In this document: piece by piece, positions 1,970-64,000 of the stretch
How positions within the stretch are numbered: the first letter of the stretch is position 1
How the letters are laid out: every line of letters starts with the position of its first letter
Source: an uncultured Nitrospiraceae bacterium
GTDB lineage: Bacteria; Hydrogenedentota; Hydrogenedentia; Hydrogenedentales; SLHB01
Direction: 5' to 3'
Assembly: GCA_964402555.1 (NCBI GenBank)
Contig: CAYOCT010000003.1
Coordinates: forward strand, 125,146 to 189,145
DNA: 64,000 nucleotides
The notes under the pieces: model-generated
What the model saw: only the letters and a program-made list of their open reading frames with translations
Told to the model about the DNA's origin: nothing
The model's database searches: none
Translations under genes and position numbers: made by a program

Positions 1970-3541
1970 TTATCTCCCTGATTGACGTATGAGTTGCCTG
2001 AGCGATTTGATTTCGCTCTCTAACGCGGTGATCCGCGCGTCTTTCTCTTCCAGCCGCTGGGCGAGACCTTGTATAGCCGCGAGCGCGATCCCGGACGCAT
2101 CGACCGTGCAGATACCCGTGTCCGAGTCCCCGAGGCCAAAGGCGGCATAAACGTCCTGGGCCATGGGGCCCATATGGCGAACGCCGCCTTGTTCGGCCTT
2201 GTACTTCCACGTGGTCACGGGGATGCACGCAACCTTGTCAAGGACGTCGCACGGGTTGACGGGAACCATATCCTGTTTGGATTCCCGGCTGCTCAAATCG
2301 GTCCAGGCCCCGGAACCTGCGGACAGCCGGGCGCCCGTGTTGGCGTCCGCGTTCGTGTAGAAATAGAATCCACCACTGGCCCGTGCCATGAAGCGATTGG
2401 AGGCATTGTTGTTGAGGTCGCTGTCGGTGGAATCGGCCCACGTAAACGCACCGATAAAGTTCGACTTCGCGCGCCTGCCAGCGGCAAAGCTGTACGTCCC
2501 TGCGGCCTCATTCGCCGATCCTCCCGGAACCGTCGCGGCGATGCCGGAGACCACATTGCCATATCCGCCGGACACCGTGGACTGCGGCCCAATAGCGTTG
2601 TTGTTATAGCCGCCGCCGACGGTTGCGTAATCCCCAATGGCACTGTTAGTGATGCCCCCGGCGACGGTCGAGTCCAAAGCCGTTGCGATATTCGACTCGC
2701 CGCCCCCCACCGTAGCGTAGTCGTCCGTTGCCTCGTTGTATTGTCCTCCCGCCACGGTCGCCGCGGAACCCGAGGCCTGGTTGATGAGGCCGCCCCCCAC
2801 TGCGGCATGAGCGCCCGAAGCAATGTTGTCCTGCCCTCCGGCAACGGTCCCATACGATGTGGGGGCCACGGAATCGCCGGCACGGTTGTTCGCTCCGCCG
2901 CTAACCGTACAGTAGGAGCCTAGTGCGCGATTCCTGGTCGCTGCCGGGTTGAACCCCGGGCTCCTCGGTCCCCCACCTGCCACAATCGAATACTCGCCTT
3001 GCGCCAGGTTGTATGAGCCGCCGGCCACGGTCGAGTAGTTGCCCTGCGCCACGTTGTACGACCCGCCGCCTACCGTGGATAGGGTTCCCGATGCAGCGTT
3101 GATCAGGCCGCCGGCCACCGTGGACCGGATCCCGCCGGCGGAGTTACGGTAGCCGCCGGCGACGGTCGCTTCCAAGTTACCGGCCGTGTTGCCTGCGCCT
3201 CCGCCTACCACGCCGTAGTGTCCCAATACCTGGTTGATCCAGTTCGCGTACCCGCCGCCCGAGATCGCCGCGCCATAGACGGCAGCGCCCGAAACGTTGC
3301 TCGCGCATCCGCCGATCACATTGGGACTGTTTTGCATCGGTTCGAGCCGCAGCGCTTGGATGGCGTTGACTTTGAACACCAGCGCCTGGTTATCGGTGGT
3401 TCCAACGAAGTTCGCGGCAGGCGTCGTTCCCGCATTGCCGGCGAGAGTCCAGTCGCTGTCATTACCCGCTTGTGCGGAGCATGCGGCTACAACAAGGAGT
3501 GCGCCCATGATCACATGTAGCATGTTCTTTCCGTTCCTCAT
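1970..3541 (-). CDS. secreted Gly-rich repeat protein (Hep_Hag/tail-fibre-like repeats) with a C-terminal peptidase S74 intramolecular-chaperone domain
   Basis: Signal peptide MRNGKNMLHVIMGALLVVAACSAQA. Many TVAGGxxNxAxGxxS repeats. C-terminus SSRESKQDMVPVNPCDVLDKV...WKYK...GVRHMGPMAQDV...TVDASGIALAAIQGLAQRLEEKDARITALESEIKSLRQ matches the chaperone-of-endosialidase (Peptidase_S74) pattern. Start chosen at the internal Met; the ORF extends to 3595. Confidence 0.65.
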   Translation of the reverse strand: MRNGKNMLHVIMGALLVVAACSAQAGNDSDWTLAGNAGTTPAANFVGTTDNQALVFKVNAIQALRLEPMQNSPNVIGGCASNVSGAAVYGAAISGGGYANWINQVLGHYGVVGGGAGNTAGNLEATVAGGYRNSAGGIRSTVAGGLINAASGTLSTVGGGSYNVAQGNYSTVAGGSYNLAQGEYSIVAGGGPRSPGFNPAATRNRALGSYCTVSGGANNRAGDSVAPTSYGTVAGGQDNIASGAHAAVGGGLINQASGSAATVAGGQYNEATDDYATVGGGESNIATALDSTVAGGITNSAIGDYATVGGGYNNNAIGPQSTVSGGYGNVVSGIAATVPGGSANEAAGTYSFAAGRRAKSNFIGAFTWADSTDSDLNNNASNRFMARASGGFYFYTNADANTGARLSAGSGAWTDLSSRESKQDMVPVNPCDVLDKVACIPVTTWKYKAEQGGVRHMGPMAQDVYAAFGLGDSDTGICTVDASGIALAAIQGLAQRLEEKDARITALESEIKSLRQLIRQSGR

Positions 3542-3669
3542 CTCCTGTCCCTCCCTGCCACTCAACTCTAGCCACCTAGAACTCGCACTGCGCATGCGCT
3601 TAACGGACTGGCCTCGGCCCGGTACCCGGCAGGCCTTATCTCCAATCTGACCACGCCATGCAAAGCTCC

Positions 3670-5518: not shown

Positions 5519-5908
5519 ATGCCTAAGAAAGCCCCGCCCAAACCAACCCAGGCCGAACTCGCGATTCTCAATGTCCTTTGGGAGAAAGGCCCGAGTACCG
5601 TGCGGACGGTGTTCGAGGCGCTTCAACAAGCACAGGACGTGGGATACACGACTGTGCTCAAGCTGATGCAGATCATGGCGTCCAAGGGCCTGGTGCGGCG
5701 GGACGAGCGCCAGAAGACGCATGTGTATACGGCGGCGTCCGGGGCGGAGCGCACGCAGCGCCAACTGGTGCGCGACCTGCTCGAACGGGCCTTTGGAGGA
5801 TCGACGGAACGCCTGGTCTTGCACGCCCTGGAGGAAAAGAACGTAACGCCGGAAGAACTGGCCCGCATCCGGAAGATGCTTGACGACTTGGAGGGTGAAC
5901 AGCGATGA
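5519..5908 (+). CDS. blaI: BlaI/MecI/CopY family transcriptional repressor
   Basis: 129-aa winged-helix penicillinase-repressor pattern (ELAILNVLWEKGPSTVRTVFEAL...GYTTVLKLMQIMASKGLVRR). Stop overlaps the start of the downstream M56 peptidase (ATGA at 5905). Confidence 0.85.
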   Translation: MPKKAPPKPTQAELAILNVLWEKGPSTVRTVFEALQQAQDVGYTTVLKLMQIMASKGLVRRDERQKTHVYTAASGAERTQRQLVRDLLERAFGGSTERLVLHALEEKNVTPEELARIRKMLDDLEGEQR

Positions 5909-7914
5909 ACATGCATCTGCTCGTATCGAACGGGGTCGCGCATCGCGTGGGGTGGTGTCTGGTTCACTTTGTGTGGCAAGGGGCGCTGGTAGCGCTTGTG
6001 CTGGCCATCGCGCTCGCGCTGTTGCGCACGCAGTCGGCGCGCCTTCGGTATGCGGTCTGCTTCGGCGCGCTCCTTCTGATGGCGGCAATGCCTGTCCTGA
6101 CGTATGGCGTCCAGACGGCATCGCTCGCGCCGGAAGAAGTCCGGGCCGACAGCCCGGTGGTGAAAGTGGCGCCGATTGCCGCGCCAGCGCAGCCTGCCCG
6201 CGCAGTCGAGACGCCGGTCCAGGCGCATGCCCGTTACCTTGTAGAATCGTCCTTGCCATGGCTGTGCTGGGTATGGCTGTGCGGCGTAGCGGCCTTCGCG
6301 TTACGCAACACCGTAGGCTGGTTCCGCGTGCGCGGTCTCGTCCGCAGAGATACCCGCGCGCTGGGCGAACCTTGGCGGTCTAGGCTGGACGCCTTGTGCG
6401 CATCGCTCAAGATTGAGAGGCAGGTTCGCCTGCTCGAATCCGCGCGCGTGACCATCCCGATGGCGGCCGGCGTCGTAAAGCCCGTGGTGCTCCTGCCGGC
6501 CTCGATTCTGACGCGCCTCGCGCCGGAACAAATCGAAGCCATCCTCGCGCACGAACTCGCCCATATCCGCCGCCACGATTTCCTGGCCAACGTGATTCAG
6601 ACCGTTGTCGAGACATTGCTGTTCTATCACCCGGCGGTCTGGTGGGTCTCGCGCCGGATACGCGAGGAACGCGAACATTGCTGCGACGACGTGGCCGTGC
6701 GCGTCTGCGGAAACAACATGGCGTACGCTCGCGCCCTTGCCTCGCTCGCCGGTCTGGCGATGGTTCCCTCAGGCATGGCCGTCGCCGCAACGAGCGGCCT
6801 GTTTCGGCGCGTGCAACGGATCGTGGGCGCGCCGGAAAAGCGTGCGTTCGGCGCGGGACCGTCGTTCGCCGCTATATCGGCGTTCGCGGTGGTGTTGGGC
6901 ATGGCGCTGGTTCCCCACTTCGGGTGCGCCAGTGGGGACTTGACGGCCAAGGTCGCCAAGATCGACATCGACCACGCGACGCGCGACGACCTGATCGCCG
7001 CGTTCGGGAATCCCGTTCGATATGCGTGGGACGGACAAACCAATCTCGACCCCAACCACCTTCCTTCGAGCTATTGCATCGATTTTCCGCACGGCGTAAA
7101 CGTCTACGTGCCCGACGGCACGATTCTCGAACTGCGTTTCTCGCAGCCCAACTACACGTTTCGCGGGAAGATCCGTGTCGGCTCGACGCTGGACGACGTA
7201 CTCGCTACGATAGGCCAGCCGGACCAGACCGTCGTGGGGCAGCCGCTCGGTTTCTACGACAAGGTCCTGTACAAGGACATCGACGGCAAGCAAGGATATT
7301 GTTATTACGCGCGCGAGGACTGTTCCGTGCGGCTGTGGTTCAACAACTATGAAGTGAGCGCGGTATACGTTACGCGGAGCGATTACACGGACGGCGCGCA
7401 TTCGCCAAGACTGCCCGGAGCGCCGATCAAGGATCTGACACCGGTGGTCGAATCGATCGCCATCGATACCGCGACGCAGGAAGATGTGATCCGCGCCTTC
7501 GGGACCCCGCGGAAATTCTCGATGGGCCAGCGCCGCCTCGATCCGAACAACCTGCCGGACAGCTACACCATCTCGTTCCCCGACGACGTGGATGTGTGGA
7601 TGGTGAATGGGCGTGTTCGATCAATGGGTTTCTGTTCGCCCAACTACACCTTCCGCGGAACGATCCGCGTCGGCTCGACCCTCGACGAAGTCATAGCCGC
7701 GCTGGGCCAGCCATCGGAGGTCGTCACAGGCCAGCCGACCCAAACTCCCGAAGGCCAAGTCGTCAAACGCAAGAGCGGCGTGCTCTACAGAGACCTCAAC
7801 GGGCGTAAGGGAACTGCGTTCTACCGAAGAGACGATGCCCACATCCTGATGAACTTCGAAGATGACAAAGTATGGCGGCTCGCGGTAATGCGAATCGATT
7901 ACGTCGCCCCTTGA
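5905..7914 (+). CDS. blaR1: BlaR1-type M56 family membrane metallopeptidase / signal transducer with a duplicated non-PBP C-terminal sensor domain
   Basis: N-terminal TM helices. HEXXH zinc motif AHELAHIRRHD and downstream FYHPAVWW, typical of peptidase M56. The C-terminal approximately 300 aa are two tandem approximately 140-aa repeats (…PNYTFRGKIRVGSTLDDVLATIGQP… and …PNYTFRGTIRVGSTLDEVIAALGQP…) rather than a transpeptidase-like domain. Confidence 0.8.
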   Translation: MNMHLLVSNGVAHRVGWCLVHFVWQGALVALVLAIALALLRTQSARLRYAVCFGALLLMAAMPVLTYGVQTASLAPEEVRADSPVVKVAPIAAPAQPARAVETPVQAHARYLVESSLPWLCWVWLCGVAAFALRNTVGWFRVRGLVRRDTRALGEPWRSRLDALCASLKIERQVRLLESARVTIPMAAGVVKPVVLLPASILTRLAPEQIEAILAHELAHIRRHDFLANVIQTVVETLLFYHPAVWWVSRRIREEREHCCDDVAVRVCGNNMAYARALASLAGLAMVPSGMAVAATSGLFRRVQRIVGAPEKRAFGAGPSFAAISAFAVVLGMALVPHFGCASGDLTAKVAKIDIDHATRDDLIAAFGNPVRYAWDGQTNLDPNHLPSSYCIDFPHGVNVYVPDGTILELRFSQPNYTFRGKIRVGSTLDDVLATIGQPDQTVVGQPLGFYDKVLYKDIDGKQGYCYYAREDCSVRLWFNNYEVSAVYVTRSDYTDGAHSPRLPGAPIKDLTPVVESIAIDTATQEDVIRAFGTPRKFSMGQRRLDPNNLPDSYTISFPDDVDVWMVNGRVRSMGFCSPNYTFRGTIRVGSTLDEVIAALGQPSEVVTGQPTQTPEGQVVKRKSGVLYRDLNGRKGTAFYRRDDAHILMNFEDDKVWRLAVMRIDYVAP

Positions 7915-8996: not shown

Positions 8997-10316
8997 ATGT
9001 CGCTACTCGATGCACTCAAGTCCATCGTTTTGGATGCCCAGGAGTTGCCTTGGGACACGGGCACGCCCCGTCTGCTCTCCATGGCGCCGGTCCGCGGCAA
9101 GGCGGCTGTATGTATCGGGGTGCGCCGCAGCGGCAAGTCGACGTATCTCCTTCAAGTCATGCAGGGTCTCGTGGATCGTGGAGTTTCCCGAAAGAACATT
9201 CTCTACCTGAACTTCTTCGACGACCGTCTGCACGTGTTGCGCCGTGAGAATCTCGGTCTTATCGCGGAAGCCTACTTCTCGATGTATCCAGAGAAGAAGA
9301 ACACGGAAACGGTATACTGTTTCTTCGACGAGGTCCAGGCGGCCCCGGGCTGGGAACCGTTCGTTGACCGCCTGATGCGGACCGAACGATGCGCCGTGTA
9401 CCTGACGGGTTCGTCGGCGCGCATGCTCTCGAAAGAAATCGCCACGCAGATGCGTGGCCGGGCGCTTTCTTGGGAACTGTTTCCGTTCTCGTTCCGGGAG
9501 TTTCTCGATTTCAAAGGCGTCGAGCGGACGGGCTCATTGTCGACCAAGAGACGCCTCCTAGTTCAAAAGGCCTTCGAGGACTACTGGGAAACCGGCGGGT
9601 TTCCCGAAGTGGCCGGCCTGGACGCGCCGTTGCGCATCAAGATTCACCAGGAGTACTTTCTGACCATCCTGTTCCGCGACCTGGTTGAGCGATACGACAT
9701 CGCCCATCCGAGAGCCGTGAACGACTTAGCGCATTGGCTGATCGACAACGTGGGTTCGTTCTACTCGGTGAACCGGCTCACCGAATACCTCAAGACGCTG
9801 GGCCACAAAGTCCCCAAGTCGGCCGTCGCCGATTATCTCACGTGGTTCGAAGACGCGTACTTCCTCTTTACGGTGCGGATCTTCGACGCGTCGCTCGCGC
9901 GAAGCAATACGAATCCGAAGAAGATCTACTGCATCGATCACGCCATGGTCGCCTCCGCATCTTCTGGGATACTGGCGAACTCGGGACATCTGTTGGAGAA
10001 CTTGGTTTTCGTGGCGCTCAGGCGTCTCTACCCGAACGTCTATTACTACAAGACACGATCGGGGCGTGAAGTCGATTTTGTCGTTTCGCCGCGGGGCCGA
10101 TCCCGAAAGTTGATTCAAGTCTGCGAGTCGCTGGCGGCGCCACAGACCCGTAAGCGGGAAGTGGCGGCCTTGGCGGAAGCCATGGCCGAGTTGAATGTCC
10201 GCGAAGCCGTCATCGTAACGCGCAACGATAGCGGCAGCATCGAAGAGGAAAGCGGGACGATTCGCGTGGTCCCGGCGTGGCAGTTCTTGGCCGACATGCC
10301 GGACTCGATCGTGTAA
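8997..10316 (+). CDS. AAA+ ATPase with C-terminal DUF4143 (predicted restriction-endonuclease-like fold)
   Basis: Walker A GVRRSGKST, Walker B YCFFDEVQ. C-terminal region with conserved E/D/K pattern typical of the AAA_14–DUF4143 family. Confidence 0.7.
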   Translation: MSLLDALKSIVLDAQELPWDTGTPRLLSMAPVRGKAAVCIGVRRSGKSTYLLQVMQGLVDRGVSRKNILYLNFFDDRLHVLRRENLGLIAEAYFSMYPEKKNTETVYCFFDEVQAAPGWEPFVDRLMRTERCAVYLTGSSARMLSKEIATQMRGRALSWELFPFSFREFLDFKGVERTGSLSTKRRLLVQKAFEDYWETGGFPEVAGLDAPLRIKIHQEYFLTILFRDLVERYDIAHPRAVNDLAHWLIDNVGSFYSVNRLTEYLKTLGHKVPKSAVADYLTWFEDAYFLFTVRIFDASLARSNTNPKKIYCIDHAMVASASSGILANSGHLLENLVFVALRRLYPNVYYYKTRSGREVDFVVSPRGRSRKLIQVCESLAAPQTRKREVAALAEAMAELNVREAVIVTRNDSGSIEEESGTIRVVPAWQFLADMPDSIV

Positions 10317-10556: not shown

Positions 10557-11837
10557 ATGGGTGGATTGATACCGAAGAGGGATATACAGATGCGGCGGGC
10601 CTGTTTGTTTCTTGCGTTCACGGCGGGGGTAAGTGTTGCAGTCGCGGCGGGGGCCGTGGCGGTAGTGTTTCCGGATGCCAATTTGGACGCGGCAATCCGG
10701 GCGGCGCTGAACAAGCCCTCGGGCGATCTCGACGACACAGAGTTGGCGACGCTGACCTCGCTGGACGCGAGCGACAGGGGCATTTCGGATTTGACCGGTA
10801 TCGAGTACTGCGTCAATCTGCAGATGCTGCTGCTGAGCGCCAATAACATCAGCGACATCAGCCGCCTGGCGGGGTTGCACGCGCTTTCGCAACTCATGTT
10901 GTTCAGTAACCACTTGGCGGATATCACGCCGCTGGCGGGATTGACTTCGCTGACGTCGCTCCATCTTCACAATAACCAGATATCGGATGCGCATCCTCTG
11001 GCCGGTTTGACGCAGTTGACAGAACTGGACCTCCAAAACAACCCGCTGATGACCGCAGGCGAACTGTCGGCACTCGTGAACCTGGAATACCTTTCGCTAA
11101 GCGGCTGCCAATTGACGAGCATTACCCCGCTCGCGGGCATGACCACGCTGACGGCGCTCTATATCTCCAATAATCAGATTGCGGATATGAGTACGCTCGC
11201 GTTGCTGGCCAATCTCGAACGCCTGGACATCGGTAGCAATCCGATTGGCCATCTCGACGACGTGGCAGGCCTCACGAACTTGGTGTCGCTGGATGCGTAT
11301 GCGAGCCAATTGACCAGCCTATCGCCCGTGGCAGGGCTGCACAACCTGCATGTGCTCAACGTCATGGGGAACGCGATCGAAGATCTGTCCCCCGTGGCGG
11401 GCCTCACCGGACTGACCGATCTGAATGTGGGGTACAACCAGGTGCGTTCGCTCGCGCCGCTCGCCGGCCTGGCTAACCTGCTCGCGCTCCTGTTCCCAGC
11501 GAATCCGGTACCCGGCCTCGAACCGCTACGGGGGCTTGCCGAGTTGCGCAGCGCCGTGTTCTACGACTGCGGCGTGTGCGACTTGTCGCCGTTCGTCGGA
11601 TTGCCTAACCTGCAGATGATAGACACGGCATGCAATCCCCTCGGCGACGAAAGCATCGCGACGGTTATCCCGCAGTTACAGAATGCCGGCGTAAACGTCA
11701 ACTACGGCAATCAAGGCTGCCCCCAGGTCCCATACGGAGGACCATGCCAGGAAGAGGGAATGCCCGCGGCAGGCGCCATGGCGATGCTGGCGCTGGCGGC
11801 ACTGACGGCGGCGTCCGGGGCGCGACGGCTGAGGTGA
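10557..11837 (+). CDS. secreted leucine-rich-repeat (internalin-like LRR) protein with a C-terminal sorting-signal-like tail
   Basis: Signal peptide. About 14 LxxLxLxxNxIsDisPLagL repeats of 22 aa. C-terminus …EGMPAAGAMAMLALAALTAASGARRLR (hydrophobic helix plus basic tail). Confidence 0.75.
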   Translation: MGGLIPKRDIQMRRACLFLAFTAGVSVAVAAGAVAVVFPDANLDAAIRAALNKPSGDLDDTELATLTSLDASDRGISDLTGIEYCVNLQMLLLSANNISDISRLAGLHALSQLMLFSNHLADITPLAGLTSLTSLHLHNNQISDAHPLAGLTQLTELDLQNNPLMTAGELSALVNLEYLSLSGCQLTSITPLAGMTTLTALYISNNQIADMSTLALLANLERLDIGSNPIGHLDDVAGLTNLVSLDAYASQLTSLSPVAGLHNLHVLNVMGNAIEDLSPVAGLTGLTDLNVGYNQVRSLAPLAGLANLLALLFPANPVPGLEPLRGLAELRSAVFYDCGVCDLSPFVGLPNLQMIDTACNPLGDESIATVIPQLQNAGVNVNYGNQGCPQVPYGGPCQEEGMPAAGAMAMLALAALTAASGARRLR

Positions 11838-11949
11838 CTGCCGCGCGCCGCGTAGCCGCAACATCCGAATCTTCCAGACTCGGTTCCGTGTCACCTTTTC
11901 GGATACTTTCGCGACTGATATATGCTGGACAACGCGAAAGGATCCGACA

Positions 11950-13635
11950 ATGGAAGTCGAGACGTTAGTTGAAGCGACGCGGACAGGGGATACCCGCGCC
12001 TTTGGCCGCATCGTTGCCGCGTATCAGGGGTTGGTGTGTTCGGTCGCGTACAGTCTGACCGGCGACCTGCATCGAAGCGAAGATATCGCGCAAGAGACGT
12101 TTGTCGCGGCATGGCAGCGCATCCGCGATTTGCGCGACCCGCGCAAGCTGCCCGCGTGGTTATGCGGTATTGCGCGCAATCGCGCGCGATCCGCGGTCCG
12201 CGATGCTCAACACGACCCGTTGCGCGGCGCTGCCTCGATTGACGACCGGTCGGAAGCGGGCGCATCCGTCGAACCGGAGACGATGGAGGAGCCGGAGCGG
12301 CTCGAATTGGTCTGGCGGACCTTGGAGGAGATTCCCGAGGAATACCGCGAGCCACTGGTCCTATTCTATCGCGAAGGCCAATCGGTCCGCGACGTATCGG
12401 AAGCGCTCGAACTCTCCGAAGACTGCGTCAAGCAGCGCTTGTCGCGCGGCCGGAAGATGATGAAAGAACGCGTGGCGCGCCTGGTCGAGGAAACGCTCGA
12501 ACACACCCGGCCCGGCGAGGCGTTCACGGCAAGCGTCATGGCCGCGCTGCCTCCGCTGGCCATGCCTGCAAGTATCGCCGCGGCGGTCTCAGGTAAATCC
12601 GTGTGCGCGCTCAAGGCGGCTGCGGCCCTGGCGTGGCTTGCCGGTCCGATCATTGGCGTCACGGGCGGGTTCTTCGGCATGTGGGCCGGCATCCGCAACA
12701 GCCCGACGGTCCGCCTACGCCGCATGATGCTCCAGTGCGCATGCGTGACCTACGCCTTCATCTGGCTGTTCTTCGGTTATGAAGGGTTGTGCGGTGTATT
12801 CTTCTGGCGAGAGCCGCGAACGATGTACGCCCTGTGCGGCCTGGGCTGGGCCGTCTACATTCCCGCGTTGTGCGCGTTGATCTGGCACTCGAACCGGTGG
12901 TGGCGCCGCGTCGCTATCGAGGACGCCGGCGAACTCCCCGCGCCCGCAACGCCGCTCGAAGAATCGTCGCTCGCGCGTTCGCGCGTGCAACGCTGGTTCG
13001 CCGTGTCCCTGGCGCTTGCCGTTGCCGGATCGGTGGGCACGGTGATTTGGATCCACTCGATGCCATGGACGCGCGTTCTATGGCCGGCAGCGTTGCTTGG
13101 TGCCGCGCTCGCGCACTATGCCTTCTTCACCCTCTTTCGCAAGGGCATGGCGATCGCGCACGACGAGGCCGCGGTACGCGAGAACCCTTCGCCCCACACG
13201 CTGGACGAAGCCCTTCATCCCGCCCGCAAAGGCTCTCCGCCGAGCGAACGCGCCCGGTTCCTCAACGACCTTGCTGCGTTGGCTGGGAGCCTCTTCGGAC
13301 CGATGGCCCCTGCCTTCAGCGCCGCCCTCGGCGCGGGGCGTTATAGGTTCTGCGCAATCACAGGCGCCCTGACCCTGTCCGCATTCCTCTTCGGAATCTT
13401 CCTGCGAAGAACCCCAAACGGGCGTCGCTGGGGGTTCTTCGGGATCTACATGGCCATGGGCGTCATCTGCGGCGTAAGCACGGCCATGGCCGGTCCGTTC
13501 ATGGACGCGCCCGGTATCAGCCCGATGGCTGTCCGCCTTATCGAAGGCGCGGTCCCGCTTGCGCTCTACTGGGGCCTCGCGCTGGCCCTATGCTTCATCC
13601 TCGAACGCCCGGTTTCGCCCGCTGAGGAGAAGTAG
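11950..13635 (+). CDS. ECF (sigma-70 family) sigma factor fused to a C-terminal polytopic membrane domain
   Basis: N-terminal sigma2 region (DIAQETFVAAWQRIRDLRDPRKLPAWLCGIARNRA) and sigma4 region (EIPEEYREPLVLFYREGQSVRDVSEALELSEDCVKQRLSRGRKMMK). Residues from about 200 to the end contain at least 6 hydrophobic helices. Confidence 0.8.
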   Translation: MEVETLVEATRTGDTRAFGRIVAAYQGLVCSVAYSLTGDLHRSEDIAQETFVAAWQRIRDLRDPRKLPAWLCGIARNRARSAVRDAQHDPLRGAASIDDRSEAGASVEPETMEEPERLELVWRTLEEIPEEYREPLVLFYREGQSVRDVSEALELSEDCVKQRLSRGRKMMKERVARLVEETLEHTRPGEAFTASVMAALPPLAMPASIAAAVSGKSVCALKAAAALAWLAGPIIGVTGGFFGMWAGIRNSPTVRLRRMMLQCACVTYAFIWLFFGYEGLCGVFFWREPRTMYALCGLGWAVYIPALCALIWHSNRWWRRVAIEDAGELPAPATPLEESSLARSRVQRWFAVSLALAVAGSVGTVIWIHSMPWTRVLWPAALLGAALAHYAFFTLFRKGMAIAHDEAAVRENPSPHTLDEALHPARKGSPPSERARFLNDLAALAGSLFGPMAPAFSAALGAGRYRFCAITGALTLSAFLFGIFLRRTPNGRRWGFFGIYMAMGVICGVSTAMAGPFMDAPGISPMAVRLIEGAVPLALYWGLALALCFILERPVSPAEEK

Positions 13636-13780
13636 GCCCACTTCGTCCACAACGTCCACGCCGTCCCTTGCGAGAATGTTTTCCCGCCTCTTTTGTGCTA
13701 CTATGCTTCGGCGAATCGGGTCCGCGATTCGGGACCGGATCTCGTGGAACCTCATGGAAGGTTAACTCAGTCCATGGCTG

Positions 13781-16336
13781 GTGGAAGCCCGCCGCGGGAA
13801 GAGGGGTGCGACGCATATGGCCGGTACGGAAGCGAGTAACGACGCGAACCGTTTAAGCATGGAAGACTTGAACGCCGGAGGGCGGTTCAAGGTCAAGAAG
13901 TATCTCAAGAGCGGCGGCATGGGCGACGTGTATCTCGCCGAGGACGACCTGCACCGCCGCGTGGTCCTCAAGACGATCCGCTCGGATAAGAACATGGACA
14001 CCGAGTTCCAGAAGCGGATCGAGCGCGAATGCCAGTTGCACGCCAAGGTCGGCACGCATCCGCACATCGTCACGCTGTACGACCGCACGACCATCCGCGA
14101 TCAGCAGGTCCTCATCATGGAATACGTCGACGGCGAGACCCTGCAGGAGCGGCTCGAATCGTACAAGAACCAGGGCAAGATCATCCCGTTGCACGACGCC
14201 CTGCTCATCGCGGCGCAATGCCTGGACGCGCTGTCGCGCATTCACGCGCACAAGATCGTGCATCGCGATATCAAGCCGGCGAACCTGATGCTGACGGTGG
14301 ACGAGGACAGCCAAATCTGCGCGAAGCTGATGGACTTCGGGATCGCGCGGCGCACGGAAGAGGAAACCCTGGCCACGTTCGCCACGGGCGACGGCAGCCG
14401 CGGTCCCGGCACGCCCGCCTATATGGCGCCCGAGCAGATCGATTCGCGCAAGTTCGGCCAGGTCTCCGAGGCAACCGACATCTATGCCGTCGGCGTCATG
14501 CTGTACGAGATGATCTCCGGCGCGACGCCGTTCACGGGAACGCTGACCGACGTCATGATCGGACACCTGACGCGCCAAGTGCCGCCCCTTCAACCGGCGG
14601 CGGGCGCGTTCGTGCCGGCCGAAGTCACCGACGTCATCAACATCGCGTTGAGCAAGAACCCCAAGAACCGATTCCCGAGCGCGAAAGCGTTTCGCGACGA
14701 ACTCAAGCAATTGCTCCAGGGCCAGGTGTCGCTCGATTCCGTAACGACGCCCGTGCAAGAGTTGAACTCGTTTCAGTTGGACGTCGACAACGCCATGACG
14801 CTGCCAACCTCGGGCCAGGCGCAAGCGCAGACCACGCCCGCGCCCGGACGCCTGGTTGCGCAGGCCCCGGCCGCTCCCGCGCAGCCGGTGGCGGAACGCA
14901 CGATGCTCTCCGGAAGCACGACGAACTGCGCGCCGCCGGCCCGCCGCAAAGGCGTGCTTGTCCCCGCGATCGCAGCCGTCGTGCTGCTCGGGTTCTGCGC
15001 GGTCTCCGGCGTGCTCATCTTCGATCGCCTGCGGCAGAAGCCCGAACCGGCGCCGGCCGCGCCGGCCACGCAGCCTGCGCCCGCCCCCGCGGCATCCGCG
15101 GAGCCCCCGGCGAAGGCGCCTGAAGCGCTATCGGGCGCGGCGCAGATCGAGGCCAGTTCGAAAGCCGAAGCCACGCTGAAAAATGCCAGCACCATGGAAG
15201 CCTCGCTGACACAAGAAGCGCGCGAACTCGCAGCGAAGGATGTCCAGGACGGCCACGACAGCATGGACCGCGGGCATAAGGCCTACGATTCTAAGGACTT
15301 CGTCAAGGCGCAGGAGGAGTACGACGCGGCCCTTGCCCATTTCAAGACGGCGTCCGAAATCCTGGCCAAGCGCGACGAAGCCAGCGTAGCGAAGACAAGC
15401 GCCGAAGCCGCGAAAGCGGCGCTGCCGCCCAATGCCGCGGAGGCAGCATCGAAAGAAACCGCCGACGCCGACGAGGCGTTCAAGAACGCAAACGACGCGT
15501 GGGATAAGCAGGATTTCGGCGCCGCGAAAGAGAAGTACGTGTCCGCCGAGGAGCAGTACGAGGCGGTGGCAGGCTTGGCCAACGGCTACACGGATGCGAA
15601 GGCCGCCAAGACGGAAGCGGAGTACGCCCACGAGAGAGTAGCGGGCAAGACTACGGATGCGGATATTCTCAAGTCGGCGAACGCGAATCTGGATCAGGGC
15701 GCCGAGGCCTGGGAGGCAAAGAACTACGACGCGTCGAAGAAGTTCTATAGCTTGGCCAAGAACCAGTATGACGATGCCGTCAAAGCGGGTGAAGCCCAGG
15801 CCGCCATGGCAGCCAAAGCGTCCGAAGCAGCCGAAAGCGTGAAGAAGTTGCAGGCGTCGGCCCAGTCCGCCAAGAACGCGATCCCGAACGAAGCCAAGGG
15901 CCTCGACGAGGTCAAAGCGGGCGACGCGGCCTTCGCCAAGGCCGAGGAAGCCATGGCCAGGCAAGACCTCCAAGGCGCCGGACAGCAGTATCAGACCGCG
16001 CTAAGCAAGTACGGCGCGGCGAGAAAGAAGATCGAGGCGGCGCGGGCGGCGCAACCGCCTGCCCCTGCCCCTGCCCCTGCAACGGCTCAAGCTGCCGCCC
16101 CGGCTCCATCGACCCAGGGAGGCAGCGCTTCGGAAGCGTTCTCAGCAGCCACGCAGAACCAGCCGCCTCCGCCCCCGCCACCTCAGCCCGCTTCGCCTCC
16201 GCCATCGCAATCGTCGGCTGCTCAGACGGTCACTTCGTCGCAGCCGGCGCCGGCGCCTCCGCCGCCATCCCAGCCCTCGCGCCCATCCGGTGGGAGTTCC
16301 AGAAGTGGCGGTCTTCGTAACAGGGCGGTGGACTAA
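13781..16336 (+). CDS. Ser/Thr protein kinase, membrane-anchored, with an extracytoplasmic Ala/Lys-rich repeat region and a Pro-rich tail
   Basis: Hanks motifs HRDIKPANLML, DFGIAR, GTPAYMAPEQ. TM helix VLVPAIAAVVLLGFCAVSGVLIF. Four approximately 45-aa repeats with a conserved (K/D)xxDFxxAxExYxxA core. C-terminal PAPAPAP/PPPPPQP low complexity. Confidence 0.85.
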   Translation: MEARRGKRGATHMAGTEASNDANRLSMEDLNAGGRFKVKKYLKSGGMGDVYLAEDDLHRRVVLKTIRSDKNMDTEFQKRIERECQLHAKVGTHPHIVTLYDRTTIRDQQVLIMEYVDGETLQERLESYKNQGKIIPLHDALLIAAQCLDALSRIHAHKIVHRDIKPANLMLTVDEDSQICAKLMDFGIARRTEEETLATFATGDGSRGPGTPAYMAPEQIDSRKFGQVSEATDIYAVGVMLYEMISGATPFTGTLTDVMIGHLTRQVPPLQPAAGAFVPAEVTDVINIALSKNPKNRFPSAKAFRDELKQLLQGQVSLDSVTTPVQELNSFQLDVDNAMTLPTSGQAQAQTTPAPGRLVAQAPAAPAQPVAERTMLSGSTTNCAPPARRKGVLVPAIAAVVLLGFCAVSGVLIFDRLRQKPEPAPAAPATQPAPAPAASAEPPAKAPEALSGAAQIEASSKAEATLKNASTMEASLTQEARELAAKDVQDGHDSMDRGHKAYDSKDFVKAQEEYDAALAHFKTASEILAKRDEASVAKTSAEAAKAALPPNAAEAASKETADADEAFKNANDAWDKQDFGAAKEKYVSAEEQYEAVAGLANGYTDAKAAKTEAEYAHERVAGKTTDADILKSANANLDQGAEAWEAKNYDASKKFYSLAKNQYDDAVKAGEAQAAMAAKASEAAESVKKLQASAQSAKNAIPNEAKGLDEVKAGDAAFAKAEEAMARQDLQGAGQQYQTALSKYGAARKKIEAARAAQPPAPAPAPATAQAAAPAPSTQGGSASEAFSAATQNQPPPPPPPQPASPPPSQSSAAQTVTSSQPAPAPPPPSQPSRPSGGSSRSGGLRNRAVD

Positions 16337-16363: not shown

Positions 16364-17296
16364 TTATGCGTGCGGATGCGCGTCGCGGTAGACCTGCTTG
16401 AGCCGATCGATGCTGACGTGGGTGTAGATCTGCGTGCTCGACAGGCTTTCATGCCCGAGCAATTCCTGGACGACACGGAGATCGGCGCCGGCATCGAGCA
16501 TGTGCGTCGCGAAGGTGTGGCGCAACGTGTGGGGCGATATTTCGTGGCGTCCTGGCAACGCCTCGCGCGCATACCTTTCGATCACGCGCTGGACGCTGCG
16601 CGTCGTCAGTGGGCCGCCGCGCCAGTTCACAAACAGCCGGTCATGCGAGGGACGGCCGAATTCCAGCCGCACGCTTAGATAGGCGCGAATTGCCGCCACG
16701 GCGTATTGCCCGAGATGCGCGATGCGTTCCTTCTTGCGTTTGCCCATGACGGCCATCGCCATGCCCGCCAGGTCCAAATGGCCCAGCCGCAGCCCGCAGA
16801 GTTCGCTCGCCCGGATCCCGCTCGAATACAACGTTTCGATAATCGCGCGGTCCCGGACGCCCAGCGGTTCCGAGACATCCGGCGCTTCGATCAGCGCCGT
16901 CACCTCGGGGATGCTCAACACGTCGGGCAGGTTGCGATCGAGCTTCGGCGACTTGACGGTCTGCGCGGGACTGTCTTCGAGTTCGCCCATGCGGACGAAG
17001 AACTTGTACGCGGCGCGGACCGCGGCCAGCTTGCGCGCCGAGGTGCGGGACGTCCCGCCGGTGGTCTGGACGTGCGCAAGAAACGCGCGGATGTCGTTGC
17101 GCGTGGCGCGCTGCAGCGCCCCGAACGAGGCCGGGGGCCGTTCCTCGTCCGGCGCGCGCTCGAAGGCCTTCGGGCCGTGGAGGGCGTAATCGCAGAACTG
17201 ATCCAGGTCGTTAAGATACGCGCGGACCGTGTGCGCGGAAAACCCGCGCTCGACTTCAAGGTACTTGACGAACCGCTCGATTTCGGCAGGATACAT
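16364..17296 (-). CDS. xerC: tyrosine recombinase XerC/XerD family
   Basis: N-terminal core-binding domain (FVKYLEVERGFSAHTVRAYLNDL). C-terminal catalytic region HTLRHTFATHMLDAGADLRVVQELLGHESLSSTQIYTHV (R..H..R..Y). An alternative upstream start exists at 17308. Confidence 0.85.
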   Translation of the reverse strand: MYPAEIERFVKYLEVERGFSAHTVRAYLNDLDQFCDYALHGPKAFERAPDEERPPASFGALQRATRNDIRAFLAHVQTTGGTSRTSARKLAAVRAAYKFFVRMGELEDSPAQTVKSPKLDRNLPDVLSIPEVTALIEAPDVSEPLGVRDRAIIETLYSSGIRASELCGLRLGHLDLAGMAMAVMGKRKKERIAHLGQYAVAAIRAYLSVRLEFGRPSHDRLFVNWRGGPLTTRSVQRVIERYAREALPGRHEISPHTLRHTFATHMLDAGADLRVVQELLGHESLSSTQIYTHVSIDRLKQVYRDAHPHA

Positions 17297-17363
17297 AGGC
17301 GCGGGCAAGCCGTTCCGTCCACTGCGTCCACAACGTCCACTTCGTCCACCGTCGCAGGGGCAG

Positions 17364-31930: not shown

Positions 31931-32423
31931 ACTTATGCGATAAAGATTTCTTTTCAGGATAGGCAATGCGCCGCGCGATATGGGGTCGGGGGCGTGGCGC
32001 GGGAGATGGAAGTTCGTGGGCCGCGCCGACGGAGATAGCAGACATCCTTTACATCGATCGGCATGCCCTCTCTCCGTCTTGGTCGCCACCTGGATAACGC
32101 CCGGTTACCCTTGACCGGCTTGGGATAGCGGGTTAGACTATTTCTACGGTAAAGTCTGCATGGCAAAATGGGCTTAGCCGCGCGAGCTTTGGGTGCGGCT
32201 CGGATTGTGGGAGACGGCGCAGCGGCCTTCCGGCGCGCCGGAGGACAGGTGAATAGAGGAATAGGGCCACCCATGCAGACATACATGGCGTGCGCTCCGG
32301 CAAACATGAATCGTCTGCTATGCCTCGGAATGCGCGGAGGCCGGGGTCTAGAGTGATATACGTGCAGGGAGGCCCGTGTTCCGCGGGCGCCCGAGGGCAG
32401 GTTGTTGCCGAGGAGGAAAGGTC

Positions 32424-35400
32424 ATGCGTACGTCATCAGTGTTCCGTGGGGCGATCCTTGTCATTCTAGCGTCGATCGGGGGCATCGGATGCCCCTGGAT
32501 AGCGCCCAAAGCACAATTCGCGGCGTACCCGCAAAGCGGTATGGCCCCGCTCGAGGTCCAATTCACGGACCAGTCCGTTCCAGGCGTCGTTCCAATCTCG
32601 CAGTGGGCATGGGACTTTGGCGATGGCGGAACGAGCCGCGCTCGCAATCCCAAGCACACGTACTCCGCTTCGGGATCGTACACGGTCTCGCTTACAGTCA
32701 AGGGTTTCCTGGCCCAGAGCACGGCGGCCATACAGGACCTCATTCAGGTTTCGGGCGAGGGCGAAGGGGAAGGCGAGGGTGAGGGCGAGGGCGAGCAGCC
32801 TGTGTATTTTGTGGTCGGCGATCCGCTGAGCATCGCCCATGGCGCCTACGTGCTGCCGTTGACCAACGCGGACGATATCGCCCACGCGCGGGACGTTATT
32901 GCGGACCCGGCCAACACGGACATGCACATCGTGGTCGCGCGCATCGATCGCGGGGGAACCGAGGGAGAGTATACCAACTGCGATCCATACCATCCCGGAA
33001 ACGTCTGGTCGTGGCGCGTGACGGAATTCGTCGGGTTTGCCGACAACACCATCGAGATCCTGGATGGTTGGCCGCAATATGTCGAGGACAATCTGGATGC
33101 GTGGATGCAGGCTACCGGCGGCGAGATCGGATTCTGGAACTGCCGAGTCTTGTACGAATTGACGGACGGATGCCCCGGCGCCGAAGGCGAAGGCGAAGGC
33201 GAAGGCGAAGGCGAGGGCGAAGGCGAGGGTGAAGGTGAAGGCGAAGGCGAAGGCGAGGGTGAAGGCGAAGGTGAAGGCGAAGGCGAAGGCGAAGGCGAAG
33301 GCGAAGGTGAAGGTGAAGGCGAGGGTGAAGGTGAGGGTGAGGGCGAAGGTGAAGGTGAAGGTGAAGGTGAAGGCGAGGGCGAAGGTGAAGGTGAAGGTGA
33401 AGGTGAGGGTGAGGGTGAAGGTGAGGGCGAAGGCGAAGGCGAGTTGTTCTTGATCGGCGTCTTCCCTGCGGCGGGTTCCGGGGCCGGCGGTACACTTGTC
33501 TATATCCCCGGTGGCGGATTTGTTAGCGAGGGAACCACGCGCGTGCTGTTCGGCGACGCCGACGCGACCAACGTGCTTGTGGGTTCCTCCGATGGTGTCG
33601 ATTATGTGCAGTGTGTGACCCCGCCGCACGCGCACGGTACGGTGGATGTCACCGTCATCAATCCCGATGGCGCAAGCGCCTATCTGCCCGCCGCCTTTAC
33701 GTATCAGGACGCGCCTGCGGTGGCGTTCATCGAGCCGAATGCGGGGTCGTCGTTAGGCGGGCAGCATGTGACCGTCCGAGGCTCGGGTTTCATGAGTTCC
33801 GGCGCAACCAGGGTTACGTTCGGTGGCGCTGACGCAACGGAAGTTACCGTCATCGACGACGGTTACAATCCGCCGTTTGTCACGTGTGTCGCGCCACTGC
33901 ACGCGCCAGGCGTCGTCGACGTCACGGTCATCAATCCTGACGGGTTGCGCGGGACGCTCGCGAGGCGCTTCACGTATTTTTCACCGGTTTACATTCAACG
34001 CGATGGCCGCTATGTGACGAATGCGTCGGTCGGATACGAGGGCGGGCCGTTCTATCCCGACAAGGTGCCCTATGGCCTAAGGAATAGCCACACGGCAGCG
34101 CTAATGTACGACCTGAAGGTCACGAATGACATCCTGCAGATCGAGTTCCCGATGGGGCTTCCGCCCGTGCCCGGAATAACCGGTACCGTTGCCAGGGATA
34201 GCTATGGCACAACCTTCTTGGCGGATCTCGCGGACGATGTCGTCAACCGGCTCACTCCCGGAACATACCCGACCGGACTCCAGTTAACGAACGTCACGTT
34301 CCAGCAATTTGCTCAAGCCGAAGACATCTACCTGGACGTCCTGGATCGGAGCGAGCCGGGGCTTGAGGTCACTCCGAGGGAGGATTTCTATGCGGCGGGA
34401 CCTGTCGGCGGGCCATTCGAGCCCCTGGCGAAGATCTACCGATTCTACAATCCGGACCCGACACCGGTTGCGGTCAGCGCGTTCCTCGTGAACACGGACC
34501 GGTATCTCTCGCTTGACCCGTCGCGGTACGTGCAGGGCGTCGAAACAACCCTGGATGCGTTCCAGGCCATCGACGTTGGCGTCTATGTCGATCAGACGCT
34601 GACCGGCAGGCTCGATGCAACCGAACTTACCAACCAGCTCCGGTTCTACAACGCAACGCTGGGTAAGGTGGCCGCCGCCCGGATGATCTATGTGACCGTG
34701 TCTGAAGACGACTTCAGCGGCCTGTCGTTCGTCGACGTGCTTAACAACATAGGACAGAACACGGCATTGCTGGGCATCGCTCCGGAACCCGGTCTCCCCG
34801 AAGATGCCGACTACAATGGCCCAGGATGGTCTCCTGGGGATGCCCTGTCCGTCCATGTCAGCGGCAATGGAATGCCCGACGCAACCACGGAACTCAAGTT
34901 GATCGAGAATGTCCTCCATGATCGGTCCTTCTCCCTGCCGAACGGACTGACCCACGCGCGCGTGGCCAGCGCATGGCATGCCAATCGGCAGCGTCTTGCG
35001 CAGGACTTGGCCCCTGTGTGGGACATGTTCGAGGTCTTGCTGCCGGGGTTCCAGGATTTCCTCACCGGTATGATGATCATTGGCGACGGAGAGATGGATC
35101 TTTCAGACCCAAGCGTCGTGCGTTGGACCGGTTCGGCGGGCTTCGTTCAGGGGCTCCTGCATTCGTTCCGAGAAGTCTTCGGTATCGAAGACATCGACCT
35201 CAGCCATTACATTCGCATGCCGGAGTACTTCGCGTTCTATGGCGACGCGGACGGCGACGGCTGCAAGAACTACTTCGAGTACGTACGGAACTCGTGGGAC
35301 TTTCCCTACGATGTCATCGCGCTCGATCCCGCGTTTAACAGTGAGAACCTCTGCATGATCGATGTTGTTCCCTCGTCTAGGGCAGGAGGCACTTTCATCG

Positions 35401-41400: not shown

Positions 41401-41942
41401 CGAACGTGCATCCCGATGCGTGCTCCGGTGAAGGCGAAGGAGAGGGCGAGGGTGAAGGTGAGCTCCTTGCAGTGTGCGACTACTGGCCTCTGGCCAAAGG
41501 CAACTACTGGCGGTGGCACACCGGTATGATTGACGCGGATGGCGGCGAGATTGCCGTGACCGATTCGAGCGTTGTCAACGGATTCAAGACGTGGGAAGTG
41601 AAGCTCTACGCTGACACAATCGCCGGGTTGTTGCCTCAACTGGACGTCTTTGTCGTCTTCGTCGACGGCTGGCTCTACGGCACGGATGTGCGCGCCGACC
41701 TCGACGGCTTGCCCGTCGTCGGTGGCGGGATGCAGCGCATCTGCCCGCAGACCATGCAATCCGGCCAAACGTTCACGTCGGATTACTTCGGCTGGCCAGT
41801 GACGGTCAGCGGCGGCGCATCTACGGTCCTGGTTTCGGTCAGTGGGTTCGGACCACTGTTCATCTTGTCCCAAGGCCAGGGACCGACAGCCGGTATACTC
41901 GGCGCTTTCGATCCTCCGGTTATCGTCGGCGGGTGCGAGTAG
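32424..41942 (+). CDS. giant (3172 aa) modular cell-surface lipoprotein: PKD domain, two IPT/TIG domains, repeated Ca-binding (DADGDG) modules, (Gly-Glu)n linkers
   Basis: AGGAGG RBS then ATG at 32424 ([23 protein letters not shown], lipobox). PKD-like segment (WAWDFGDGG…HTY…GSYTVSLTV). An 88-codon pure (GE)n run at ~33178-33443 and about 8 shorter GE linkers. IPT-like domains ([17 protein letters not shown]…[10 protein letters not shown]). Six copies of an approximately 215-aa module ending …[21 protein letters not shown]…NALNPxVHPxxC. Three copies of an approximately 160-aa module ([16 protein letters not shown]…). Two copies of an approximately 90-aa module. The ORF track starts at an upstream in-frame Met at 32376. 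Confidence 0.85.
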
Positions 41943-42801: not shown

Positions 42802-43950
42802 TTACTCCGCTTGGACCGTTCGTTTAAGCCATCCGTCAGGATTGCAGACATGGACTTCCAGATTGGAGTAGGTCTTGACGTAGCCGTCGACGCTCAGCGG
42901 GCCGACTACGTAGTTGCTGCCGTTCGGGTAGTATGAACGGAACACAGCCAATCCCGCTGGATCGAACTGGCGGGGATCCCATTTGCACTCGATGACGTCC
43001 ACGTGGTCACGGTTGCGTGCGATGACGAAGTCCACCTCGTGCCCGGAGGCGTCGCGCCAGTATTGAACTTGCCATTCATGGCCGTGCGCCAGCAGGTACT
43101 CCAGCACGAGATGTTCCCAGAGCGTGCCGTAATCCGAAGGGCGCAACGGATCCCAACCTCGGCTGAAACTGACGAATCCTGTATCGAACGCATAGGCCTT
43201 GGGCATCTTCACGATCTCGCCTTGCCCGCCGCCGTGGAATGGACGCACGACCGTAAGGGCATGGGTTGCCTCCAGCGCGCGGACATGGCTGTCGACGGTC
43301 TGGCGGCTGATACCAAGCGCGCGCGCCACGCCGGAAACCGCCAAAAGACCCCCGCTCTGTTTCATCATATACTCAAACAGCGAACTGAACTTGTCCGGAT
43401 CGCGAAAGGCGAAGAGCCGCTGCATGTCCCGGGCGTAGAACGAGTCCATCCATTCCCGGTAGAAGCTGGGGGATTTCTCTTCCGCCAGCAACGCATCGGG
43501 AAGCCCCCCGTGATAGAGCCGTTTCAGCAGGGATTGGTCGAATGCGCCAAGCTCGTCCCAGAGTACCGGCGTCAGACGGACGAGCCGTTTCCGCCCCGCC
43601 AACGTATCCCGGAACTTTCGCGATGCGGCCAGCGTCGAAGAACCGGTCGCCAGAATCCTCAAGTGCGGGAAGACGTCGGCTCCTATCTTCAACAGCCGGC
43701 TCGGGTCCGGAAGCTGGTGAATCTCATCGAACACCACGATGGGCCGTTCGACGTTTCGAAAGAACAGCTCCGGGTCGGCGGTCATCTCCGCGACCACGGG
43801 CAGGTCGCAGTTGACATAATGGACGCGCTCATCGCCAAGGCTTCGCGCTAGCGTCGTCTTTCCAACGCGCCGCACCCCTGCGAGCCACACGATCGGCGCG
43901 TTCGCCCACGCGCTGTGAATTCGATCAATCCAGAATGGCCGTTCAATCAT
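42802..43950 (-). CDS. AAA+ ATPase with C-terminal DUF4143 (second, divergent paralog)
   Basis: Walker A GVRRVGKTT, Walker B VVFDEIHQ. Same architecture as the 8997 gene. Confidence 0.7.
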   Translation of the reverse strand: MIERPFWIDRIHSAWANAPIVWLAGVRRVGKTTLARSLGDERVHYVNCDLPVVAEMTADPELFFRNVERPIVVFDEIHQLPDPSRLLKIGADVFPHLRILATGSSTLAASRKFRDTLAGRKRLVRLTPVLWDELGAFDQSLLKRLYHGGLPDALLAEEKSPSFYREWMDSFYARDMQRLFAFRDPDKFSSLFEYMMKQSGGLLAVSGVARALGISRQTVDSHVRALEATHALTVVRPFHGGGQGEIVKMPKAYAFDTGFVSFSRGWDPLRPSDYGTLWEHLVLEYLLAHGHEWQVQYWRDASGHEVDFVIARNRDHVDVIECKWDPRQFDPAGLAVFRSYYPNGSNYVVGPLSVDGYVKTYSNLEVHVCNPDGWLKRTVQAE

Positions 43951-63949: not shown

Positions 63950-64000
63950 GCCCATCATGATGGGAGAATGCCTCCTAAGGGTGCGCAGGAATTATACCAA

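Follow-up and report, generated by a model that had tools for sequence, protein, structure and literature searches.

A predicted membrane-tethered ECF sigma factor with a polytopic C-terminal extension, and the probably coincidental kinase gene beside it

Sigma factors of the extracytoplasmic function (ECF) type rank among the main routes by which bacteria transduce signals, and those carrying a regulatory C-terminal extension are the second most common type. Here we analyse a protein of this kind encoded in a 64,000-nucleotide stretch of contig CAYOCT010000003.1 (assembly GCA_964402555.1), referred to below in its full length as the window, from an uncultured bacterium placed in the Hydrogenedentota. 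A single gene at 11950..13635 encodes an ECF sigma factor that runs on in frame into a polytopic membrane domain, and the next gene on the same strand encodes a Hanks-type Ser/Thr kinase. Among the described groups that resemble it most closely, ECF01-Gob was reportedly defined by Jogler et al. in 2012, on bioinformatic grounds, by a C-terminal extension with transmembrane (TM) helices. PMC4937300 likewise cites ECF01-Gob as an ECF with a TM C-terminal extension, and ECF263, also a bioinformatically defined group (Casas-Pastor et al. 2021, PMC7826278), has an extension of five or seven TM helices. Like the sigma factor in the window, members of both groups join an ECF core to a long polytopic C-terminal extension, have no cognate anti-sigma gene and come from phyla of the Planctomycetes-Verrucomicrobia type, and none is known to have been characterised experimentally. 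The window protein differs from ECF263, when compared by group description only, in having about 10 TM helices as against five or seven; rough counts over its family come to 6–8. ECFs with TM extensions are already catalogued, and the window sigma is another protein of this general kind.

Fused sigma/anti-sigma proteins form a second point of comparison. IutY of Pseudomonas putida (ECF243) and the actinobacterial groups ECF48, ECF52 and ECF53 are reviewed in PMC8999054, and IutY, the only experimentally studied fused ECF, is activated by regulated intramembrane proteolysis involving Prc and RseP (PMC8999054). These proteins share with the window sigma the covalent fusion of a sigma factor to a membrane-spanning regulator, together with a mode of activation that is proven for IutY and proposed for the protein described here. 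In those proteins an anti-sigma domain of the FecR-like or zinc-finger type is still recognisable between sigma4 and the membrane, and it is accompanied by one or two TM helices and a substantial periplasmic sensor domain; the window sigma has no detectable anti-sigma domain, about 10 TM helices and no periplasmic domain. Two further systems bear comparison. In EcfP/PknT of Vibrio parahaemolyticus (ECF43) and in EcfK/PknS of Xanthomonas citri, where the ECF is activated by phosphorylation, an ECF gene stands beside the gene for a transmembrane Hanks kinase, as in the window; ECF43 sigmas, however, are soluble, have lost the acidic DAED motif and are regularly accompanied by a kinase gene (PMC8999054), whereas the window sigma keeps S-E-D, is predicted to be tethered and belongs to a family without a kinase neighbour. 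Pro-sigmaK of Bacillus subtilis, the substrate of SpoIVFB, is a group 3 sigma factor with a short prosequence at its N-terminus, as opposed to an ECF that carries a polytopic domain at its C-terminus. The literature searched contained no experimental study of a polytopic membrane-tethered ECF.

A sigma factor continued into a polytopic membrane domain

The reading frame of 561 amino acids (aa) is uninterrupted by stop codons, and an identical protein is present in the public record. Both sigma regions are intact (Table 1), and the generic ECF model of NCBIfam, TIGR02937 (sigma70-ECF), matches at 81.6 bits against a cut-off of 42.9; no specific NCBIfam equivalog is above its cut-off. Having sigma2 and sigma4 as its only sigma regions and an ECF profile match above threshold, the protein belongs to the ECF (group 4) sigma factors. 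About 375 hydrophobic-rich residues with 8–9 hydropathy peaks follow the sigma regions in the same frame. A previous sequence-only reading of this DNA had described an ECF with intact sigma2 and sigma4 regions fused in frame to a membrane domain, and the single open reading frame (ORF), the Pfam matches and the reference loci all bear this out: the sigma ORF is fused in each of the 81 loci examined, with a median length of 545 aa.

The wider family was collected by searching with the full 561-aa protein, which gave 750 matches (E < 1e-5). The top homologues are full-length proteins of 555–584 aa with 49–60% identity over ~100% coverage. Nearly all of the homologues found in this way carry the sigma domains and a long extension, all full-length ones are fused, and crude counts place 6–9 hydrophobic segments in 109 of the 120 homologues listed. 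The family occupies at least 547 loci in species-representative genomes from at least six phyla. Among the loci listed, the majority are from Verrucomicrobiota, and the others are from Planctomycetota, Hydrogenedentes, Sumerlaeota, Lentisphaeria, Acidobacteriota and cultured Gammaproteobacteria, the last represented by Cellvibrio, Alteromonas alba, Teredinibacter waterburyi and Ningiella. Judged by these sequence comparisons, the 561-aa protein is one member of a large, conserved ECF family that is experimentally uncharacterised. There is no family-wide neighbour gene, the commonest neighbour occurring in 13 of 81 loci, and this fits the rule that C-terminal extensions replace anti-sigma factors (PMC7826278). 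The one apparent case of a membrane domain standing alone without a sigma factor, P0013, turned out to be a fragment at the edge of a contig; its reading frame runs on upstream into region 4, so that it too is fused. A metagenome scan for stand-alone membrane domains with an extension-only alignment, which is a weak test, returned one locus, probably on the same contig as locus L008.

Conservation within the family was read from alignments of 36 and 112 members. Region 4 is followed directly by a junction motif, L183..T.P188 G.A F192 T.A V196.A L200 P201, which leads into the first membrane segment (TM0). L183 and P188 are invariant, while F192, V196, A198, L200 and P201 are at least 90% conserved among the 112 sequences, and in both alignments the conservation of the junction and TM0 equals that of the sigma core. 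Downstream comes a variable Ala/Gly/Lys linker, and after it a helix rich in Gly (GGFFGMW), a cluster of the form R.RR and more helices. Common to the whole family are the first four spans and the cytoplasmic element NR..R.I..ED; the distal half of the extension is modular. Distant members, for example P0025, P0029, P0043, P0052, P0079 and P0106, keep the sigma factor, junction and first four spans, but where the window protein has its last five or six helices (after ~aa 330) they carry a different module, in which a repeated segment rich in Gly (G..S.GG.A.G...) occurs together with the motif HAND..A.

The AlphaFold model of the 561-aa protein has a mean predicted local distance difference test score (pLDDT) of 85.6 and contains nine long confident helices and one low-confidence hydrophobic segment. 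The helices comprise residues 218–249, 254–284, 289–325, 343–370, 375–402, 433–461, 465–485, 489–514 and 525–551, mostly at pLDDT >90; in the junction and TM0 the score falls to 40–47 (aa 200–215). Lys and Arg residues number 24 in the cytoplasmic loops and 6 in the periplasmic loops, a pattern repeated in six close relatives, and every periplasmic loop is of 14 aa or fewer. TM0 must span the membrane, since the positive-inside rule otherwise fails, and the charge distribution favours a topology of about 10 spans with both termini in the cytoplasm. The sequence-only reading was therefore right that the domain is polytopic, and its count of six or more TM helices is better given as about 10 spans, from the model helices and positive-inside counting together. 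The extension has no extracytoplasmic domain, so any sensing would have to take place within or at the membrane. It has no Pfam match at E <= 10, no sequence match in the PDB and no specific fold match.

The same reading had also called the protein a membrane-tethered sigma and a self-contained anti-sigma fusion. The first of these, a membrane-tethered ECF with a regulatory type of C-terminal extension, stands. The second, in its canonical sense, is not supported: no anti-sigma domain is detectable in the extension (Pfam, E <= 10), nor is there space for one, because region 4 ends at about aa 172–176 and TM0, the first hydrophobic segment, starts at about aa 191, leaving only ~15 residues between them.

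Table 1. Features of the sigma and kinase genes, in window coordinates
Feature	Position	Strand	Evidence and remarks
Predicted family-specific ECF-type promoter	11887..11921	+	-35 TGTCACC (11889-11895), -10 GACTGATAT (11913-11921)
Ribosome-binding-site-like AAAGGA before sigma gene	11937-11942	+	
ECF sigma factor fused to polytopic membrane domain	11950..13635	+	single ORF, 561 aa
Sigma region 2	12013..12210 (aa 22-87)	+	Pfam Sigma70_r2, E 2.8e-16; acidic S43-E44-D45 of region 2.2 retained
Sigma region 4	12304..12465 (aa 119-172)	+	Pfam PF08281 Sigma70_r4_2 at aa 119-171, E 3.1e-11
Junction with TM0, the first membrane segment	12496..12588 (aa 183-213)	+	L..T.PG.AFT.AVLAALP, then Ala-rich stretch
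Nine-helix membrane bundle	12601..13602 (aa 218-551)	+	short periplasmic loops, Arg-rich cytoplasmic loops
Possible extended -10 element	13696-13704	+	TGcTACTAT, read from sequence; weak candidate for a separate kinase promoter
Hanks-type Ser/Thr kinase gene	13781..16336	+	ORF from GTG at 13781; likely start ATG 13817, giving 839 aa
Kinase catalytic domain	13889..14689 (aa 37-303)	+	Pfam PF00069, E 7e-47, 160.5 bits against cut-off 31.7
Single TM helix of kinase	14966..15022 (aa 396-414)	+	hydropathy peak 2.68, sole peak in protein
Fourfold extracytoplasmic helical-hairpin repeat	15209..16060 (aa 477-760)	+	period 70-81 aa, degenerate TPR-like
Pro/Ser/Ala-rich low-complexity tail of kinase	16061..16333	+	read from sequence

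A putative family promoter and the proposed release of the sigma factor

Enumeration of bipartite words upstream of the sigma genes revealed a putative family promoter made up of the words TGTCACC(T)TT ... (G)G(C/T)ACTTAT, or in compact form TGTCACC-N17-(C/G)ACT(T/G)AT. The distance from TGTCAC to ACT is 19 nucleotides (nt) in 42 of 48 instances. Across the family the promoter lies at about -71 from the start codon, and in the closest relatives (L001, L002, L006 and L088) at -60 to -62. A weight matrix trained on 48 homologue loci, with the window left out, finds exactly one site on the two strands of the 64-kb window (11887-11919, score 26.6), which has the modal 19-nt spacer and is placed 61 nt upstream of the ATG of the sigma gene; in shuffles, about 0.5 matrix hits per window are obtained at a threshold of 14. 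With this matrix the autoregulatory site is present in 59 of 83 loci, and 19 extra hits are found in 1.48 Mb, 14 of them beside sigma genes (11 divergent and immediately upstream, 3 just downstream). The fixed spacing and position of the motif and the placement of its extra copies beside sigma genes indicate that it behaves as a genuine regulon signal, and the window sigma gene is most likely positively autoregulated from the predicted promoter.

Besides autoregulation, the promoter predicts neighbouring targets in some lineages: the genes behind the extra copies encode a secreted CIA30-domain protein (in Gammaproteobacteria and others), TPR proteins and a beta-lactamase-family protein. In locus L037 a divergent promoter copy precedes the gene for a secreted CIA30 (PF08547) protein of ~200 aa (L037:9058-9657, minus strand), immediately upstream of the sigma gene, and the same arrangement is found in L041, L046, L053, L060-L062, L068, L073, L074 and L083, which are gammaproteobacterial and some other members. 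On this pattern the CIA30-domain gene is a likely regulon member, and it may hint at the physiological role of the family. A Chthoniobacter metagenome-assembled genome has two sigma-membrane fusion paralogues in tandem (L027:8266-9906 and L027:10001-~11600), with a TGTCACC promoter before each.

The best explanation for these features, to which we assign a probability of roughly 0.6, is that the protein is a tethered and inactive pro-sigma factor which is freed by regulated proteolysis and controls its own gene, and that the kinase is independent of it and its neighbour by coincidence. The sigma factor would be made as a membrane-tethered, inactive precursor, and its synthesis as one polypeptide would fix sigma and inhibitor at 1:1. 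The helical bundle would sense a signal inside the membrane, for instance a hydrophobic ligand or a disturbance of the lipids or the envelope. Regulated proteolysis at or close to the conserved Pro-/Ala-rich TM0, resembling the cleavage of IutY by RseP or of pro-sigmaK by SpoIVFB, would then liberate the sigma factor, which would bind RNA polymerase and transcribe the gene that encodes it as well as a regulon located elsewhere in the genome. A Pro-/Ala-rich, helix-destabilising character is typical of the TM segments of intramembrane-protease substrates (RseP substrates), and AlphaFold models TM0 as detached from the bundle, with low confidence there.

Several points weigh against this explanation. 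The family promoter was identified by sequence statistics, and proteolytic release is inferred. No protease gene is linked to the sigma gene in the window. Site-2 protease substrates normally need prior trimming, and a nine-helix bundle downstream of TM0 is atypical for them. On masking of the sigma domains by the cytoplasmic loops, the AlphaFold model gives no indication either way. As for the independence of the kinase, taken up below, the lack of conservation of the gene pair leaves a link specific to this lineage possible, and because no terminator was detected the kinase could be co-transcribed by read-through from the autoregulated promoter.

The main rival explanation holds that the sigma factor works while tethered, in the manner of ToxR or CadC, with the bundle switching conformation to expose regions 2 and 4 so that RNA polymerase is recruited to the membrane with no proteolysis at all. 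We consider this rather unlikely, although membrane-bound one-component transcription factors are established biology and the want of a linked protease gene in the window counts in its favour. It also draws support from the whole extension being conserved and confidently folded, which suggests more than a disposable tether, and from two conserved cytoplasmic elements, NR..R.I..ED and FRKG..IA.DE, that could dock on the sigma factor. However, the link of ~15 residues would be sterically tight for a sigma factor that has to bind the beta-flap and the beta-prime clamp in the holoenzyme, and a TM0 that is modelled as detached and followed by a variable Ala/Gly linker is what would be expected of a cleavable tether. 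Moreover, every fused ECF examined by experiment depends on cleavage (IutY; PMC8999054).

Short of probable, but a serious possibility, is the broader proposal that the family constitutes a distinct class of ECF, a one-polypeptide intramembrane sensor. Its bundle would have neither a periplasmic domain nor a solved structural relative, the signal would act through the junction and TM0, by cleavage or by unmasking, and no anti-sigma factor, partner or kinase would be needed. Handles on the family are provided by the junction/TM0 motif, a predicted ten-span topology essentially without periplasmic loops, the modular distal half, the specific promoter and the cultured hosts. The occurrence of the family in cultured Cellvibrio, Teredinibacter and Alteromonas, combined with a predictable reporter promoter, makes the mechanism directly testable.

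The neighbouring kinase

The sequence-only reading had proposed that the kinase controls release or activation of the tethered sigma, as in ECF43-like pairs. On this proposal the kinase would sense an extracellular cue through its repeats and phosphorylate the sigma factor, its linker or its loops. The arrangement of the genes is suggestive to a degree, in that they share a strand, are 145 nt (from GTG 13781) or 181 nt (from ATG 13817) apart and have no detected terminator between them; a consensus scan of 11700-14000 found neither a full sigma-70 promoter nor a terminator. At a gap of this size the two genes are not translationally coupled. Both products are predicted inner-membrane proteins with their catalytic or sigma domains in the cytoplasm, and there is a report that SCO4117, a fused ECF of group ECF52, is phosphorylated (PMC8999054). 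A conserved serine, S43, lies beside the acidic pair of region 2.2 and could be counted in favour of the kinase, but it is conserved throughout a family that lacks kinases and so provides no evidence for it.

Comparison across the family argues against kinase control, which we regard as improbable. A Hanks kinase adjoins the fused sigma in none of 80 reference loci and in none of 10 close full-length relatives, whose neighbours are all different, whereas a conserved kinase neighbour marks the kinase-linked groups (ECF43 and ECF59/61/62/217/283). Nine of the 80 reference loci have a kinase within 10 kb, the nearest being ~4 kb or more away, which looks like background. In the weight-matrix scan no copy of the family promoter precedes the kinase gene. 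The defining feature of ECF43 is that sigma2.2 has lost its acidic DAED motif and has Ser/Thr in its place (STTA in EcfP) (PMC8999054). The window sigma reads R-S-E-D at aa 42–45, and among 112 family members both E44 and D45 show conservation of at least 90%, so that the acidic residues whose loss is the hallmark of ECF43 are kept both in this protein and in its family. Furthermore, the sole kinase orthologue that shares the ectodomain, P0122, sits between the gene for an FHA-FHA-ABC transporter and flgK, with no sigma gene nearby. Near the pair in the window, which lies in a mixed chromosomal neighbourhood, there are no FHA, PP2C or site-2 protease genes. The adjacency of sigma and kinase genes is most likely specific to the source genome and coincidental. 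This removes a tempting inference, for kinase control of the sigma factor would otherwise read as a new ECF43-like pairing.

Finally, there is practically no chance that the fusion is a frameshift or assembly error by which a sigma gene was merged with an independent gene for a membrane protein or an anti-sigma factor: nothing was found in favour of such an artefact, the frame is continuous, the junction is the most conserved segment outside the sigma regions, and the recurrence of the fusion in hundreds of full-length relatives from independent assemblies, including complete genomes of cultured bacteria, excludes it at the level of sequence comparison.

Two further gene arrangements were observed outside the window. 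Directly upstream of P0122 and on the same strand, L005:149-3304 (contig Ga0172371_10021826) encodes a 1051-aa protein in which two FHA domains are fused to an ABC transporter (ATPase and ABC-2 membrane domain). FHA proteins are far more conventional partners of Hanks kinases, and the FHA-gated transporter is a plausible phospho-dependent partner of the P0122-type kinase. A 557-aa gene downstream of the orthologue, considered as a candidate sigma fusion, was identified as FlgK. Elsewhere, a gene for an APH-family (PF01636) protein with a kinase fold (L090:6793-7731) lies 68 nt downstream, on the same strand, of P0017, a 37%-identical relative of the window sigma; this is a single case, with no such cluster among the 81 loci.

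The kinase is 100% identical to a protein of 839 aa in the public record (P0121), whose start is the ATG at 13817, and a ribosome-binding-site-like GAGGGG precedes this codon. The VLK, HRDIKPAN, DFG and APE motifs are intact, which identifies it as a Hanks-type kinase. The sequence-only reading of the gene, as a Hanks kinase with a fourfold extracytoplasmic repeat and a Pro-rich tail, is upheld by the kinase domain, the single TM helix and the location of four motifs, at aa 502, 574, 644 and 725 of an ectodomain rich in Ala, Lys and Glu. The repeat length given there as ~45 aa has to be corrected, since the measured period is 70–81 aa and each unit is a helix-turn-long-helix hairpin. Four such hairpins are seen in the AlphaFold model of the ectodomain (pLDDT 91.9), with a conserved K-D/N-F/Y at the turn and a second helix of 28–51 aa; in a standard TPR the entire helix-turn-helix hairpin measures about 34 aa.

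The repeat is genuine and not generic low complexity. In composition-preserving shuffles (n = 500), at most 2 of 500 reach the observed score in five of six unit pairs, the best pair having z = 9.9. The ectodomain of the orthologue P0122 is colinear with that of the window kinase (29% identity over 372 aa, E 5e-21) and keeps all four repeat cores, and its Pro-rich tail is similar. The earlier statement that the repeat has no obvious named family also agrees with our searches. The ectodomain has no Pfam match at E <= 10, TPR included; Foldseek with its model against the PDB gave nothing significant (best E 0.55); and NCBIfam BatC-TPR gave a weak match below the cut-off (E 4e-4). When 1.84 billion representative proteins were searched exhaustively with phmmer, only the kinase itself, P0122 and a canonical TPR protein, P0241 (E 5e-6), were retrieved, so that the fourfold repeat is found in just two kinases in that set; the match to P0241 is in line with the one to BatC-TPR. 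The repeat is most aptly called a degenerate, TPR-like hairpin repeat, and a very rare one.

With PknB/Stk1-type and LysM-type kinases the window kinase shares a cytoplasmic kinase domain, a juxtamembrane linker, one TM helix and a repeat ectodomain, but that ectodomain is neither PASTA nor LysM. The PASTA kinase model NF033483, whose cut-off is 450 bits, gives it a score of 239.9 bits with a match limited to aa 33–433, which places the protein outside the PASTA kinases. The nearest relatives of its kinase domain are Hydrogenedentes kinases, most of which have a LysM (PF01476) ectodomain. Taken by itself, the ectodomain is a nearly unique sensor built of helical repeats and has a minor interest of its own.

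Other genes in the window

The sigma gene is preceded by a gene for a leucine-rich-repeat protein with a signal-like N-terminus (10557-11837) and, two genes upstream, by one for an AAA_14/DUF4143 ATPase (8997-10316, plus strand), a second copy of which is encoded at 42802-43950 on the minus strand. On the other side of the pair, a gene for an XerC/D-type tyrosine recombinase (16364-17308, minus strand) converges on the kinase gene with 27 nt between the stop codons. Two genes of regulatory type, encoding a BlaR1-type M56 membrane peptidase/sensor (5905-7914, plus strand) and sigma-54 (rpoN, 62528-63958, minus strand), are unconnected to the sigma/kinase pair. A single ORF at 32376-41942 (plus strand) encodes a giant protein of 3188 aa. 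The product of 1970-3595 (minus strand, 541 aa) has a C-terminal Peptidase_S74 (endosialidase chaperone) domain and a UspA1-type adhesin repeat, an architecture that, from its sequence, is predicted to be that of an intramolecular-chaperone tail-fibre or adhesin.

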